From Eledone cirrhosa (taxonomy: Eukaryota): DNA of 64,000 bases. The translations under genes were made by a program, and so were the position numbers. The notes beneath the pieces are model-generated. The model was not told where the DNA came from. It saw nothing but the letters and a program-made list of their open reading frames with translations, and did not search any database. The stretch is taken from positions 49,414,001-49,478,000 of the forward strand of contig OZ024745.1 of the NCBI GenBank assembly GCA_964016885.1. Direction: 5' to 3'. Shown one piece after another: positions 11,615 through 45,298 of the stretch; position 1 is the first letter of the stretch, and each line of letters begins with the position of its first letter.

Positions 11615-11805
11615 GGCTAAACAGGGATTCTTGTTACACTGGAGTTTCGCCTGTTTATCACAGGGTCATCAGACAAGAACGGATACGTATATATATAATT
11701 CTTATATATATATATATGTGTATGTATGTATGTATGTATGTATGTATGTATGTATGTATGTATGTATGTATGTATGTATGTATGTATGTATGTATGTATG
11801 TATGT

Positions 11806-12590: not shown

Positions 12591-12944
12591 ATAAATCAGG
12601 AAAGAAGAGTGACGTGGTGTGCTATACAAAAAAGGTTTTTAATCTCATTGCTGACAATTGTTTCTCTGAACTGGTAGGTCTAGAGATCGCTACCCGCTTA
12701 TTTTCACGTTATTCGATCACCAATACAAAGTTATAACCAGTCAATTCATCGGAGCTTATGAGCTTGTTGATTCTCACAAGCTCCGATGAATTGACTGGTT
12801 ACAACTTTGTATTGGTGATCGAATGACGTGAAAACAAGCAGGTAGAGATCTCTAGACCATCCAGTTCAGAGAAACAATTGTCAGCAATGAGATTAAAAAC
12901 CTTTTTTGTATAGCACACCATGTCACTCTTCTTTCCTGATTTAT
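12591..12944. repeat. 354-bp near-perfect palindrome (172-bp arms, 10-nt loop)
   Basis: ATAAATCAGGAAAGAAGAGTGAC...GGAGCTTATGAG, loop CTTGTTGATT, then CTCACAAGCTCC...GTCACTCTTCTTTCCTGATTTAT. Only a few mismatches. Confidence 0.97.
12780..12885 (+). ncRNA. Type I hammerhead-ribozyme-like fold with enlarged helix II loop (mirror copy on - strand at 12650-12755)
   Basis: Helix I GCT/AGC; core CCGATGA; helix II TGACTGG/CCAGTTCA; GAAA; helix III C-AATT-G with palindromic loop; GTC cleavage triplet. Confidence 0.6.
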
Positions 12945-16799: not shown

Positions 16800-19700
16800 C
16801 TTGGAGACGAATGCTTAAAACACAACTTACTCTTTATTCAGGGTGCGAAAATTCAGTATCAATAAATCTCTTTAATCCACTTTTTAACAATTTTATACTT
16901 TATTGCACTTTTATAATTTTCTTTAGGTATTACTCTTTATTTTATAATTTTAATTTAACCTGAAACATATATAAAAAAATCATTTAACAAATTTAGCAAA
17001 TTAAACTTACATACAACGTAAAATTCAGCATACAAATAATTCTATTGAATAGCTTAGAATTTTTACAAACCCCACTTTTAACTGTTTAATAGCACTTTTT
17101 TTTTTATAGATTTGGGACCTAAGCAACACAAAAAAGTGATTACAAGCCAGTAACAGAGAAAAAAATTATTTTTGTTACACGGTGTTATCTAATGATGCAA
17201 GTAGGTCTAAGCGAAGGCGTCTCACTGAAGATGTAAATGCGACTGCGATCAGGCTCTCACAGAATGCTGTGCAGACGTCAGCTGCAAGAACGGAGGAGGA
17301 TGACAGTCGGCGTGAACTTCGACGGAACAAAGATGCTGCCGCGACTGCTGCAGCTCGCGCTCGAGAGGATGAAGGACGACGAGCCGTTCGACGAAGCAGG
17401 GACGCCACTGCAACAGACCCTGCTCGTGCTCGAGAGGATCAAGGACGACGTGCCATTCGACGAAGCAGGGACGCCACTGCCACTGCTGCTGCACGAAACA
17501 CTGAAACCATAGAGCAACGACGTGGCCGACTTCTGCAAAGTGAACAGCGGCGATCATCGTTACGTGGCATTTTTGAATTTTTAGGCCTTGCAATTCACGA
17601 TGGTTGTTGAAGGTCTTTAACTAAGACCCCTCCTCCGACTATGCCGTTCATGCAGATATTCAAATTGGGGAAATGACCTCTACTTGCCAGTTTTGCCGTA
17701 CGAAAAAGTGGCCAGGGGAGAGAGATGGAATGTGCTGTTCAAACGGTAAAGTTAGATTACCTCCTATTCACGATCCTCCAGAGACATTGCAACTCCTTTT
17801 GGAGGAATCATCGAAGTTTCCGCGTAATATCCGCCGCTACAATTCCGCGTTTCAGATGACATCCTTCGGAGAAAAGTTTGCCTCGGAACGTGGGTTCATG
17901 CCAACTTTCAAAGTCCAGGGGCAGATCTACCACTTGATGAGGTCTATTCAGCCTCTGGTAGAAAAGGGGCCTCAATTTCTTCAGTTATACTTCGTTGGAA
18001 ACTATCAGGAGCAGGCAGAGATGCGAAACTCTATTTCGTCCGAAACTAACATTGAAACCATAAAACTTCAAGAAATGCTTCATGACAAAAACAGTTATGT
18101 TCGGAGTTTCAAGTACGCTTTGGAAATAGCCACCAAGCCAAACTTTAGTGTGGTCATACATGCTGACCGAAGGCCTTCTGGAGAACACGCTGGTCGGTTC
18201 AACGCACCAACATGTAATGAGATTTCTGCGGTTATTTGTGGTGAACAGCACAAGAGAGATATCATTCTAAAGCACAGTGACAGCACATTACAGCGTATCA
18301 ATGAGACACACAGGTCCTACGATGCACTCCAGTATCCATTGCTATTTGTCAACGGCGAGGACGGATACCATTTCGGCATTCCTCAACATTCAGCAGACAA
18401 TGGTGAGGTACATCTTAGCAAAACTGTCACCTGCATGGATTTCTACGCTTTCCGATTTATGGTAAGGTACAATTCATTCTACCATCTACACCGTTCTCGG
18501 GACCTTTTCCAACAATTTGCTGTTGATATGGCCGTTAAAAGAAACTTCGACCTGAATGCTACATTCATCTACGCGATGGAATTAACAACGACATATCCCC
18601 AGACAATTGAGGGCAAGTGTGTATTTTGCCTTAAACGTTCACAGGGGGACGCCGATACATGCACGAGAGGACTCAGGATGCCATGACTTACGTACGACAT
18701 TATGGGCGCCCCGACCTTTTCATAACGTTTACATGCAATCCTAAGTGGAAGGAGATTACAAACGAACTGTTCCAAACGCCAAGACACAGGCACGATCTCA
18801 TAGCAAGAGTGTTTCGCCTGAAATTATCCAAATTAATGGATTTATTAAAGAAAGGACAGGATTTTGGGCCTGTACACGGTTGCGATATGTACACGGTTGA
18901 ATGGCAGAAACGAGGGCTGCCGCATGCCCATATCTTGATTTGGTTGGTTACAAAAATCAGTTCAAACTACATCGACAAATTAATTTCTGCCGAACTACCT
19001 GATCCGTCGATTGACAAGGACCTCTTCTCTATAGTCACATCAAACATGGTCCATGGTCATTGCGGACACGGACTCAATATGAAGTCCCCGTGCATACACG
19101 ACGGAAAGTGTATAAAACGATATCCCAGGCCGTGTTTACAGGAAACACAGACTGGCGGTGACTGATATCCGTTGTATAGGCGCAGGAGACCTGAAGACGG
19201 TGGGTTCACAGCAAAAGTTGGCGAACGCGAAATCGACAACAGCGGGATAGTGCCATATTGCCCGCTCCTCTTGAAAGCATTCAACGCCCATATAAACGTA
19301 GAATTTTGCAACTCAGTAAAATCAATTAAATACGTTTGTAAGTACGTAAACAAGGGATCGGATGATGCCGTCTTTGGTCTTCGTCATGAAAACAGTAGAG
19401 ACGAGGTATCTGACTACCAAGCAGGCCCATACATTAGCAGCAATGAAGCCTTTTGGCGCATTTTTGGCTTCTCACTGCACCAACGACACCCCGTCATTAA
19501 ACAATTTGCCGTTCACCTTGAAAACGGTCAAGGGGTGTATTTCAACGATGCAACAGCTGCTCAGCTAACGATCTCACCAAAGGAAACTACACTCACCGCT
19601 TTTTTCAAACTTTGTCAACTCAACGACTTCGCTCGAACTCTGCTGTATTCTGAAATACCGTCTTACTATACATGAAACCGGACAAAATGGCTACGAAGAA

Positions 19701-22019: not shown

Positions 22020-22425
22020 ACTTCTTAAGGGCCACCACCTCTAATCAGAGTCCTCTTTGCTGACAGCTCTGCCGCTGAGACTTTTAAGAGTGAACGATCC
22101 AAGGCCCTCTTCAGGGCCACCAAGTTTAAATTGTTACAATCAGATTCATCTTTGCTGGCAGCACCGCCGCTGAGATATTTCAAAGTGAACGTTGAAAGGT
22201 CCTCTTCAGGGCCACCAACTATAAATTGTTATCGCTGGATTCGTCTTTGCTGGTAGCACCGCTGCTAAGACTTTTAAGATTGGGCGATCCAAGGCTCTCT
22301 TTAGGGCCACAAACTTTAAATTGTTACCATCGGATTCGTCTTTGCTGGCAGCACCGCCGCAGAGATATTTCAAAATGAACGTTCAAAGGCCCTCTTTAGG
22401 GACTATACCTATAAATTGTTACTTC
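22020..22425. repeat. Helitron 3' subterminal minisatellite, ~95-bp units alternating A/B types
   Basis: AGGGCCAC-type motif at ~22028, 22113, 22208, 22303 and 22398. Units alternate GACTTTTAAGA..CGATCCAAGG with GATATTTCAAA..CGTT.AAAGG. Also present in the sister copy at ~38400-38790. Confidence 0.9.
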
Positions 22426-35290: not shown

Positions 35291-35822
35291 TATGGATTCA
35301 CCGAACATTTATTATAATGCACGGTGTGTTTGTAAACAAACATCCCGAATTAAGCCGTACAGTGTCTAGCAACCATCGTTGCTCATTTGTTCAACACTGA
35401 CAAAGGAACGCTGTACTAGTTTCAAGCTTATTAGCTATCGTCAGCAACGTATACCTTCCTGCCAGATGGTTGAACGTCTGAAAGTATTTACTTTCCTTAT
35501 GCATATTAACGGCTGAGCAGCCTAATTTGCATATCGAGTGAGTTAATCGGCCGGGGTACCGAAAACGATAAACGGAAAAAATGAAACGAAATTTCATTTC
35601 TCACTCTTAGTACGGCTGTTACTTAAATATAAGTATGTATACGTACATACATATATGTATACAGACGTACAGTAGTATATATATATATATATACATACAT
35701 GCACATATATATATATGCACGTATGGATTCACCGAACATTTATTATAATGCTCGGTGTGTTTGTAAACAAACATCCCGAATTAAGCCGTACAGTATCTAG
35801 CAACCATCGTTGCTCATTTGTT
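35291..35822. repeat. ~100-bp direct repeat (35291-35391 and 35722-35822), plus shared upstream microsatellite
   Basis: TATGGATTCACCGAACATTTATTATAATGC...CAACCATCGTTGCTCATTTGTT occurs twice with about 2 differences. Confidence 0.92.
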
Positions 35823-38321: not shown

Positions 38322-41300
38322 CTAGCAGAGGTACCCAGCGTTGCCCAGTATAACTCGTTCAAATGAACCGAAAGACTTCCGTTAAACACGACTATAGAAG
38401 TAACAATTTATAGGTGTTGGCCCTAAAGAGGGCCTTTGAACGTTCATCTCTGCGGCGATGCCGCCCGCAAAGAAGAATCCGATGGTAACAATTTAAAGTT
38501 GGTGGCCCTAAAGAGAGCCTTGGGTCGTTCACTCTTAAAAGTCTCAGCAGCGGTGCTGCCAGAAAAGACGAATCCAGCGATAACAATTTGAAGTTGGTGG
38601 CCCTAACCTTTTAACGTTCACTTTGAAATATCTCAGCGGCGGTGCTGCCAACAAAGATGAATCTGATTGTAACAATTTAAACTTGGTGGCCCTGAAGAGG
38701 GCCTTGGATCGTTCACTCTTAAAAGTCTCAGCGGCAGAGCTGTCAGCAAAGAGGACTCTGATTAGAGGTGGTGGCCCTTAAGAAGTGCTTCACACCACTT
38801 TGGTGTGTCGTAATTGCTTTGCTTGTTATTTGAGATTGTATCCTAGAAAAGCATGTAACAGTCGGTGGCCACAAAAACGGCCTTAGCAAGACCACGCTGG
38901 AATGTCAAAAAAATGTGTAAATAAGATGTAGGGAAAAGTAGATTAATTAGGTTAAAACTACGGAACATCGATAGCAAAGCGTAATAGCAACATATAAATG
39001 CGGAAAACAGAGACATTGAACATTTATAACGTATAGCAAAAGCAACCTCAGTGACGTACATGGTATTGTCAAAGGGACAAAAATAGCACACGGATACAGC
39101 GAATGTAAGCACTTATACAAAAAAAAAAAACAGCAATTACTTGTTGGCGGATGGGGTGCCTACAAAACTTCCTTATAGACTATATTTGGGGTTTTCTCGT
39201 GAGTTGCAAAAGCAAATAGGTTATGTCGGCTCCCCACTCGGGAGCAGCCAACATATAGTTCACCATGGGAGAAGCACGGTTCTTCTAAATTAAGCCCAAC
39301 GACCGTCAGCGTCTGACCCTGTGATTTGTTAATCGACAGGACGAAACTGAGCCGGAGAGGGAATTGCAGCGTTCTAAATGTGAAAGGAATTTCTTTACCG
39401 GATGGAATGAGACGTATCCTTGTTATGAAGACAATATCCCCTTTACCACATCCTGTAAGTATTGTTGACTGAATAACATGAGGCATCTTCTTTTGGACGA
39501 CCAGACGCGTGCCATTGGAAAGCCTTCAGGGTTCCAAATTCCTAAGGAGCATAACATGGGCACCTTTCTTAAGTTGCAGTAAATGTGGTGGCAATCCGGG
39601 AGGGTCTAGGGAGTTAAGAAATTCTGTGGGGGTAATTAACAATTTCGTCCGGATCAGCCATAAAGTCAGGGACTTGTTGATGTGCAGGTTTCCAGGCAAG
39701 CACAGCGTAGTCGGAGGAGGGGTCGTAGTTAAAGGCCTTCAACAACCATCGTGAATTGCAAGGCCTAAAAATTCAAAAATGCCACGTAACGATGATCGCC
39801 GCTGTTCACTTTGCAGAAGTCGGCCACGTCGTTGCTCTATGGTTTCTGTATTTCGTGCAGCAGCAGTGGCAGCGGAGTCCCTGCTTCGACGAACGGCGCG
39901 TTATCCTTCATCCTATCGAGCGCGAGCAGCGGATGTTGCAGTGGCGTCCATGCTTCGTCGAACGGCACGTCGTCCTTCATCCTCTCGAGCGTGAGCTGCA
40001 GCAGTCGCGGCAGCATCTTTGTTCCGTCGAAGTTCACGTTGACTGTCATCCTCCTCCGCTCTTGCAGCTGCCGTCTGCACAGTATTCTGTGAGTGCCTGA
40101 TCACAGTCGCATTTACATCTTCGGTGAGACGCCTACGCTTAGACCTACTTGCATCATTAGATAATCGACCAATGAAAGTTCTTTTCTTGGGTGGCATTGA
40201 TTTTAAGAAATGAACCAGGGAGAACGATAAATAGTGGACGAATAACGTTTAAGTAAGCAAATCTAAACGCGGATATAAATTGTGGAAAAATGTGATAAAT
40301 CTATGTGGTCTGAGAAAGTGGGTATGTTTTGCAAGATTGTGTGTACCAATCAAATTTCGGACTACCTGTGATAAAGGAAATTAAATAGTGTAGCTACAGT
40401 GGTAGGTATATAAGTGTCAGTATGTTTGTTCAGCTCGAACATAGCAATAAGTAAGTACTAACCATTGAAAGGATACAGGCAAAAATGGCCGAAAAATCAC
40501 AGCATGATAAACTGGAACCTTATGACCATAAACACATTAACTAAATCTCCTTTAAGGTGACAAAATGTTGAAGAAACATGCGTTTCAGAAACATGGGATA
40601 GCTTATGAGAGTACGCATGTAAAAAACCTACCACTTGTCAAAAGCCAAAGTGTGATCCTAGGTCGGACTTGACCGATATAAATAGGAATGATTTCATTCA
40701 ATGAACAGCATTCGAGTTGTCTGATTGGTTAGATAATACAAATAAGTGGGATGAAATCTACTGAACACAACTCACTGATGTGTGGTTGTCCAGAGGTCAC
40801 CATTTCGCACTTAATTGAGGTGCAATTAAACGGGGGAGACAACCGGGTGCAAAAACTAATCAATCATTCGCACAGTTTAGGCATGAGTGTGAAATAGCAC
40901 AATCCAAATACAGTAGGCGTTAAAATTTACACCTGGGTTAAATCGCGCTTTCTTGGTTAGGAGTGTGAAATGACGCCAAAGTTCAATGAAAAAAATTTAA
41001 CTCCCCATTCCGCACTTAATTGTGGTGCAATTACACGGGGGAGACAACCGGGTACAAAATTAAATTCAATCATCCTAAAGTTAACTAAACAAACTAAAGT
41101 TAAGTCAGGGGGATTTAAAAATTCGCTACTCCATTTGTAGGACATGAGTAACCGATGTGTCAACTTTCGTTTAAATTGACTTTTATTTCCAGAAGTTGAA
41201 ATGCTTTGCTGCGACCATAATATGAACTTTAAAAGTGGTCCAAAGGGGCTCACTGCCCTCCCTAGGTGGTTCCCTTGCAAAATTCAAGTGATAACTAATG

Positions 41301-43974: not shown

Positions 43975-44015
<41 letters not shown>

Positions 44016-44040
44016 GTATATGTATATGTATATATATATG

Positions 44041-44071
<31 letters not shown>

Positions 44072-44870
44072 GTACATATATATGTATATATATGTATGTA
44101 TATATATATATGTATGTATATATATATGTATGTGTATATATATATATATATATGTATGTGTATATATATATGTATGTATATATATATGTATGTATATATA
44201 TATGTATGTGTATATATATGTATGTGTATATATATATATATGTATGTATATATATATGTATATATATATATATGTATATATGTATATATATATATGTATA
44301 TATATATGTATGTATATATGTATATATATATATATATGTATGTATGTATATATATATATATATGTACATATGTATGTATATATTTTACATAATACATATC
44401 CATTTTATCACCACATTTCTATCTATCATTTAGCACGCCATTTAAAAAAATTTTAACATTTCTATCACCTGTAACATGCTTTTACATTATACATGAAATA
44501 TGCTTGTTTCAGTTATAATATAACTTTTACCTTATACATGCCTTTATTAATTGTATTGACTCTTGCATTATATACCCCTAACATTACCTGATTCTATGCT
44601 ATGATATCTTTTATCTTTTATCTATCTTATCTTACATATTTTTTTGCTTATACCTTTTGCACATGTTTTACCTTAAACAATACCCTTTTATACATAATAT
44701 GCTTATTTTTCACCTTTCACCATTGCTCCTTGTAATTGTGTTTTCTGAAGCATAACATTCTTTTTTAACTCCCGATTTTCTGTATGATGTCTATGACACT
44801 GACAACAGTTATGTATCTGCCTCAATGTTCTGAAGAATAGAATTTTAATCACCTGTTTAAACATTCTCTA

Positions 44871-44917
44871 TGCTCCGATGAATCCAGACATCCCTCTAGA
44901 AGAAACAATCGTCAGCA
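44871..44917 (+). ncRNA. Minimal type I hammerhead-ribozyme-like motif
   Basis: TGCT-CCGATGA-A-TCCAG(ACATCCCT)CTAGA-A-GAAA-C-AATC-GTC-AGCA. Helix I is TGCT/AGCA, with a GUC site. Confidence 0.65.
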
Positions 44918-45104
44918 AATAAATGTATTAAACTAAGACTTAATTGTTTTAATACTTTGTATCTCGGCTCTGTAATACACTTGATAATTTACATTGAACC
45001 TTTTCTCCTACCGGTAACTGGCTAGTACTTAGTACTACCATCCATATTTATAATTGTATATTAAACATATATAAGTATAAATATTATTATTATTACTATA
45101 TATA

Positions 45105-45298
45105 TAGGGCGGTGGATTGGCAGTATCGGTAGAGGGTCGGACGCCATGCTTTCCAGCATAGTTACGTCCCTTTACGATCTGAGTTCAAATCCCGCCGAGG
45201 TTGACTTTGCCTTTCATCCTTACGGGGTCGATAAAATAAAGTACCAGTAATGCAGTGGGTAATTGCTGGCCTTGTGCCTAAAGTAGAAACAATTATTA
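45105..45298 (+). mobile_element. Full-length young-looking SINE, main family
   Basis: AGGGCGGTGGATTGGCAGTATCGGTAGAGGG...GAGTTCAAATCCCGCC...AAACAATTATTA. The central block GCCTTTCATCCTTACGGGGTCGATAAAATAAAGTACCAG resembles the Meta domain of MetaSINEs (from recall). Confidence 0.9.

Follow-up and report, generated by a model that had tools for sequence, protein, structure and literature searches.

The window, i.e. the whole stretch of 64,000 nucleotides that was analysed, contains a hammerhead-like frame at 44871-44917 on the forward strand, as our pattern reading of the window confirmed. The pattern matches once in the window versus in none of 100 shuffled versions. The parts of the motif and the elements around it are collected in Table 1.

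Table 1. Features of the window that bear on the hammerhead-like motif (window positions).
Feature	Position	Strand	Remark
Type I minimal hammerhead, family A, decayed copy	44871..44917	+	predicted cut between 44913 and 44914
Helix I 5' strand, UGCU	44871..44874	+	sequence reading
Core C3-C4-G5-A6-U7-G8-A9 (CCGAUGA)	44875..44881	+	C4 is 44876, the family consensus
Helix II region, 20 nt	44882..44901	+	6-8 bp in the family form; minority bases here at 44882 and 44898
GAAA	44902..44905	+	sequence reading
Helix III / dimer palindrome (containing C-AAUC-G)	44905..44912	+	broken here by C at 44910
U16.1 and C17	44912..44913	+	sequence reading
Helix I 3' strand, AGCA	44914..44917	+	sequence reading
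AATAAA, poly(A)-signal-like (candidate role)	44918..44923	+	just 3' of the cut site
5'-truncated 3' UTR / pseudo-LTR body, family A Hydra-clade PLE	44379..44962	+	many copies stop at 44962, 49 nt past the cut site
Optional PLE tail, in some copies only	44963..45100	+	ends at about 45096-45106
TA-rich microsatellite at the 5' edge of the copy	43975..44383	.	repeat reading
Family B PLE end with C4 hammerhead 12780-12885	12767..12944	+	long branched helix II, intact palindrome
Family B second arm, inverted, head-to-head, also C4	12591..12762	-	inverted twin of the 12780-12885 motif

The motif family has the layout of a type I hammerhead, i.e. a three-helix junction with the 5' and 3' ends in helix I, and it keeps the core residues C3-G8, G5, A6, A9, G12-A13-A14, A15.1-U16.1 and H17. 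The U4 of the CUGA U-turn is replaced by a consensus C4, and the G10.1-C11.1 pair is missing, the first position after A9 being unpaired in 23 of 34 aligned rows. The palindromic loop III of dimer-type hammerheads is present in the family and absent from the window copy. Rfam gave no hammerhead family among its 7 hits to E = 10 and matched neither this motif nor the one at 12780-12885; its matches within the window are mostly microsatellite artefacts.

The window copy is decayed. The earlier note had placed it in the same frame as 12780-12885, and the two indeed share the core, helix I and the GAAAC-loop-GUC segment. The note further described its helix II as short and different. It is unlike the long branched helix of 12780-12885, but it is weak in the window copy, with a folding energy of -0.8 kcal/mol versus -7.6 for a typical copy of the family, two pairs of the family form being lost. 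The self-duplex of loop III is +0.3 kcal/mol versus -6.4 in the family form, and the palindrome is gone. The states at 44882, 44898 and 44910 are minority ones in family A, the family base making up about 75%, 99% and 99% of the depth, respectively, in contigs of one independent sample. There is neither a promoter-ORF context for this copy nor a family A partner inside the window. Since the palindrome and two helix II pairs are lost, we predict the copy at 44871-44917 to be dead, i.e. probably inactive as a ribozyme, and the earlier note missed both this decay and the retroelement around it. This single copy is in itself of little importance.

The segment 44379-45100 is a dispersed repeat whose best copies are 81-92% identical (40 scored of 2,228 first-look candidates) in a host genome of 3.0 Gb with abundant TA repeats. 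No ORF remnant was found in the window copy. Other copies (L248, L251, L252, L260 and L265) combine a reverse transcriptase (RT) with a GIY-YIG endonuclease (EN) at the C-terminus in a single ORF upstream of the motif, with 1,654 nt between the end of the endonuclease ORF and the predicted cut in a family A copy and 904 nt in family B. The first Met of the ORF is about 255 nt 3' of the cut site. The motif is outside the ORF, and hence coding constraint does not explain its conservation. The translations show RWR (RWK-like), DKT, a CxCX5C linker, CxxC and CxH, which match the definition of the Hydra clade of Penelope-like elements (PLEs) in the available part of PMC8557442; Pfam GIY-YIG matched one of six ORF fragments, with a score below its cut-off. 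The family copies also show (TA)n insertion, inverted arms and a one-sided tail. Judged from these protein and end features, the motif lies in the pseudo-LTR of a 5'-truncated Hydra-clade PLE. We found 868 homologues of the PLE proteins at E <= 1e-20 (7,991 candidates scored), and the three organism-named ones among the 120 listed are all molluscan, which suggests a molluscan host. Two other classifications were rejected. The Neptune clade has a CX2-5CxxC linker, absent here where the linker is CxCX5C, and DKT is also contrary to it. A non-LTR retrozyme would consist of short non-coding tandem repeats, each with a hammerhead, while the copy here is solo, forms no array and is linked to an RT-EN ORF.

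Several other repeats were seen in the window. Right after the PLE tail, at about 45107-45290, lies a very high-copy short repeat with a contig depth hundreds of times that of the PLE, which we take to be SINE-like. Two more hammerhead motifs with canonical U4 cores belong to other repeat families (11627-11680 and 35408-35450, both on the reverse strand). A 95-bp repeat occurs in two inverted arrays (22043-22422 on the forward and 38447-38763 on the reverse strand), which gave a histone 3' stem-loop-like Rfam hit of 29 bits, below the cut-off, and 69-bp GC-rich arrays lie at 17318-17477 and 39857-40031. The 95-bp and 69-bp arrays are possibly one element present twice.

In families A, C, F, B and G the consensus base is C4, which is not the result of random decay. 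With any base allowed at position 4, families A and C have 908 exact genomic matches versus 0 in the control, 113 of which carry U4, and our hand count of the first 100 matches listed gave 90 C, 9 T and 1 G. Among arms picked by BLAST and not by the pattern, C4 is found in 26 of 33 in family A and 27 of 31 in family B. The sister family F (core CCGAAGA, cut triplet GUA) has 7,731 C4 matches versus 43 in the control, which makes it the largest family counted and brings the C4 copies genome-wide to over 8,000. Family G has C4 at all three loci seen. U4 is carried by all 32 arms of family P, by all 100 listed of the 781 of family R, by the single copy of family N and by the downstream motif of family Y. 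In family Q, a hammerhead frame about 940 nt downstream of the ORF carries A4 in 11 of the 12 distinct sequences found in the fetched loci, the twelfth being without its 5' part. No hammerhead was found in the ORF families S, T and X, where it was looked for. Position 4 is hence U, C or A within one radiation and the rest of the core holds: C3, G5, A6, G8 and A9 are constant between families, and N7 (U, A or G) and the bases flanking helix II vary. As for other taxa, 2 of the 120 metagenome matches listed passed a loose helix test, neither resembling these elements, and the 3' half of the motif was present in 0 of 120 listed from viral contigs.

The genome-wide tally bears out the earlier proposal of U4C as a family-level variant, and it refutes the view that C4 is a random decay of a canonical CUGAUGA core or a chance match. 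The window copy does show other decay changes. However, C-to-T is the commonest change in the copies, with an overall mutation spectrum that is strand-symmetric, so mutation heads to U4 and cannot yield the C4 majority observed in five families, and the control patterns match only 0 and 43 times. We give this explanation practically no chance of being right.

Some of these hammerheads differ in other parts. The core of family Q is CAGAAGA; its helix I has 5 bp and its helix II 3 bp, and helix III is long and non-palindromic (L254, 5715-5775, forward strand). The A4 motif of this family was also seen in L019, L046, L062, L075, L087, L095, L257, L259 and L270. Loop III in family R (L304-L311) is non-palindromic, unlike in its relatives, reading CACTTG in 5 of the 6 copies with a printed loop. 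A further family with a U3-A8 core and a CCGG palindrome has 10 arms in the fetched loci (L066, L067, L079, L103 and others).

C4 is derived within these PLEs, because the close relatives P and R and all 25 published Hydra families with a listed motif carry U4. The endonucleases of family A are 61-67% identical to those of C or F, and the ones of family B are 33-39% identical to those of A, C or F. A tree of 25 rows and 443 columns, built without named reference elements, groups A, C and F (94/99) and places B as a sister to P/N/R (99.9/100), which are themselves grouped at 90.5/99; the backbone, including the place of family G, has no resolved order. C4 is present in three deep lineages of this tree. 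The tree is fitted equally well by a single gain followed by a reversion in P/N/R and by two to three separate gains. The window motif had been called independent of the one at 12780-12885, and this is right in that they belong to different families with endonucleases 33% identical, but not as a claim of independent origin of C4, as a single gain plus reversion fits equally.

It had also been argued that the motif is under structural selection. This is supported for the helices, but not for C4 as a favoured base in itself, since the U4 relatives and the A4 family amplify well. In the alignments, both helix II and the dimer palindrome show covariation between families. Among 34 distinct rows of families A, C and F, 87% of the cells pair versus 21-40% for slid partners, and one helix II pair switches between A-U and G-C on both sides in 9 of the 34. 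The covariation score of this alignment was reached by 1 of 500 shuffles, and its pair-count measures were not above the shuffles. The rows are mutually related and pattern-picked, and the invariance of the core columns is therefore partly by construction. In family F the helix III palindrome has three forms, AATT, AGTT and AGCT, and each of the 8-mers pairs fully with itself (-6.4, -3.4 and -11.1 kcal/mol, respectively), which fits selection on an intermolecular helix. The helix I letters are identical in families with 33% endonuclease identity, and in family G they are GUU/AAC.

Selection could also have acted on C4 directly, if it were preferred over U4 as a rate-lowering setting that leaves the downstream ribozyme uncut until copied. 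Family F has only 135 U4 copies versus about 7,700 with C4 even though C-to-T is the commonest mutation, a level similar to that of the G5A form (121, p = 0.42); such a level is also what decay after insertion would give. The neighbouring positions differ between subfamilies, and C4 persists in the three deep lineages, which again fits a preference for C4. On the other hand, the young and abundant relatives P (32/32) and R (100/100 listed) have U4, and the U4 copies of families A and C outnumber the G5A ones, 113 versus 29 (p = 7e-13). The predicted C4-G16.2 latch was rejected as not specific to C4, the U4 versions mispairing the core equally in A and C. We consider a selected rate setting unlikely. 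The 113 versus 29 in A and C could be read as U4 being inherited and G5A being purged; we rejected this since the excess is absent in F (135 versus 121). Sequence context or U4 sublineages are candidate causes of the excess in A and C.

Whether the family form cuts was addressed through the insertion ends, by searching for family F sequence that begins at the exact cut site and is preceded by two non-consensus bases. This gave 17 matches at 16 loci, which we read manually as 13 junctions and 3 internal deletions, versus 7 matches, 6 of them junctions, for a control at offset -8. The excess of 13 versus 6 junctions is not significant (p = 0.17), and it becomes 7 versus 6 after the removal of the TA-repeat junctions, which the control filter cannot pass. 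One insertion (L331) begins at the cut site and extends by more than 1.2 kb into the ORF. In three head-to-head mini-insertions (L326/327, L328 and L330) the two arms measure about 47 and 211 nt and both begin at the cut site, which is the pattern expected if cut RNA were copied from two internal starts. The partner arm starts at most 3 nt from the start of the first arm in 5 of 8 inverted cases versus 0 of 4 in the control, with p about 0.08 by hand, 0.06 without L319, and one control partner at -1. Among unselected arms, 1 of 31 in family F and none in other families start at the cut site; nearly all copies span it. The family F insertions at the exact cut site are suggestive of cleavage in vivo, at a level that is not significant, and ends at -1 or 0 could also come from the reverse transcriptase stalling at helix III. 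Copies of family F with G5A, which are presumably dead, are also found as paired arms, and one round of insertion thus does not require a working ribozyme.

The available parts of earlier studies describe how such hammerheads behave. A viroid U4C variant has a lower activity in vitro, sufficient in vivo as the viroid infectivity is kept, and the same paper describes a contact of the A6-N7 phosphate with U4 (PMC3088659). A full mutational scan of a type III ribozyme found the U-turn mutants low in activity except for the C3-G8 swap (PMC9901934). Minimal hammerheads of PLEs cut weakly and as dimers only (PMC4209133), and one PLE hammerhead requires its protein for cleavage but is itself not required for insertion in vitro (PMC11167929).

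It could be that U4C retired the motif catalytically, and that it is kept as a folded RNA, for example as a site close to the RT starts where the PLE protein binds or packages the RNA. This would agree with the cut site being spanned by nearly all copies, with the pairwise insertion of G5A copies, with hammerhead cleavage being dispensable in vitro in PMC11167929, and with helix I letters that stay the same at 33% endonuclease identity, beyond the need of base pairing. A retired motif would hardly be expected to have its catalytic G8 and G12, a cleavable triplet (GUC or GUA) and the dimer palindrome all kept or covarying; moreover some insertions start exactly at the cut site, and the A4 and U4 families have otherwise the same core. 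We regard a retired motif as quite improbable.

We favour, and hold to be fairly probable, that the window motif is a decayed pseudo-LTR hammerhead of a Hydra-clade PLE in which C4 is fixed, the intact form likely being slow, dimer-dependent and possibly protein-assisted, and cutting a minority of the transcripts after GUC or GUA. The element would be transcribed through tandem pseudo-LTRs, and two hammerheads would pair via the loop III palindrome to form helix III, with the RT-EN protein probably helping the cutting. C4 would weaken the U-turn and slow the cutting, and the cut, where it is made, would give a defined 5' end. As the starts of reverse transcription would lie about 47-49 and 190-210 nt downstream of this cut, most copies, having the whole motif, would come from uncut RNA and a weak U-turn would cost little.

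More tentatively, the normally invariant U-turn base may have been released in the Hydra radiation of this host, where three deep lineages have fixed C4, a fourth has A4 and others have U4; the variants would cut in vivo, and dimer pairing or the element's own protein would replace the U4 contact. We see this as possible, with our own expectation leaning somewhat against it. If true, CUGA descriptors miss thousands of motifs, and some PLEs considered ribozyme-less may carry such motifs. Searches based on CUGANGA have a blind spot, as the largest family counted here, with 7,731 matches, has C4. The candidate roles of the PLE hammerhead are RNA processing, an action aided by the protein, or that of a passive passenger. 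The related amplified families with U, C or A at position 4 provide matched constructs for asking how important the cleavage rate is and whether the protein can compensate for a weakened core. Luense et al. 2017 is said to be a catalogue of PLE hammerhead variants and could already include U4C. In the literature texts covered by our search, we found U4C only in a viroid and no U4C or U4A fixed in retroelement families. The U4C motif was also absent from the available supplements of PMC4209133 (two of three files) and PMC8557442. PLE hammerheads, dimer cleavage and the viroid U4C are already known, and the new part is a position-4 variant fixed in retroelement families, of which we found no report.

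Among the closest known systems are the Hydra-clade PLE hammerheads (Craig et al. 2021, PMC8557442). Based on its available part, they have in common with ours RWR/RWK, DKT, CxCX5C, and CxxC plus CxH around the endonuclease E and N, as well as (TA)n insertion, inverted 5'-truncated arms and a one-sided tail, and a 3' type I hammerhead whose helix II is flanked by unpaired bases on either side. Inverted arms and a one-sided tail are standard for PLEs. All 26 published Hydra rows (25 families) in its File S2 have CUGA, in a table built with a descriptor that required CUGA, whereas the sequence is CCGA in families A, C, F, B and G and CAGA in Q. Our elements have a longer ORF unit, of about 4.2 kb, and a tail of about 140-165 nt versus 30-40. 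The minimal dimer-type PLE hammerheads (Cervera and de la Pena 2014, PMC4209133) share the type I layout, a short helix I, a long helix II, a palindromic loop III, the mostly solo or opposite-strand copies and a low expected activity. The core variant in the available part of that paper is U3-A8 and not U4C, and G10.1-C11.1 is conserved there but not here. The viroid U4C (PMC3088659, citing Ambros and Flores 1998) is the same core change, seen there in a variant of one viroid and here as a fixed state in retroelement families with thousands of copies. The Poseidon PLE of Anolis (Frangieh et al. 2024, PMC11167929), which belongs to another clade, also has two RT starts 3' of the hammerhead that define the body and the tail, and can serve as a model of cleavage with help from the protein; its ORF begins within the ribozyme, while the ORF here begins about 255 nt downstream.
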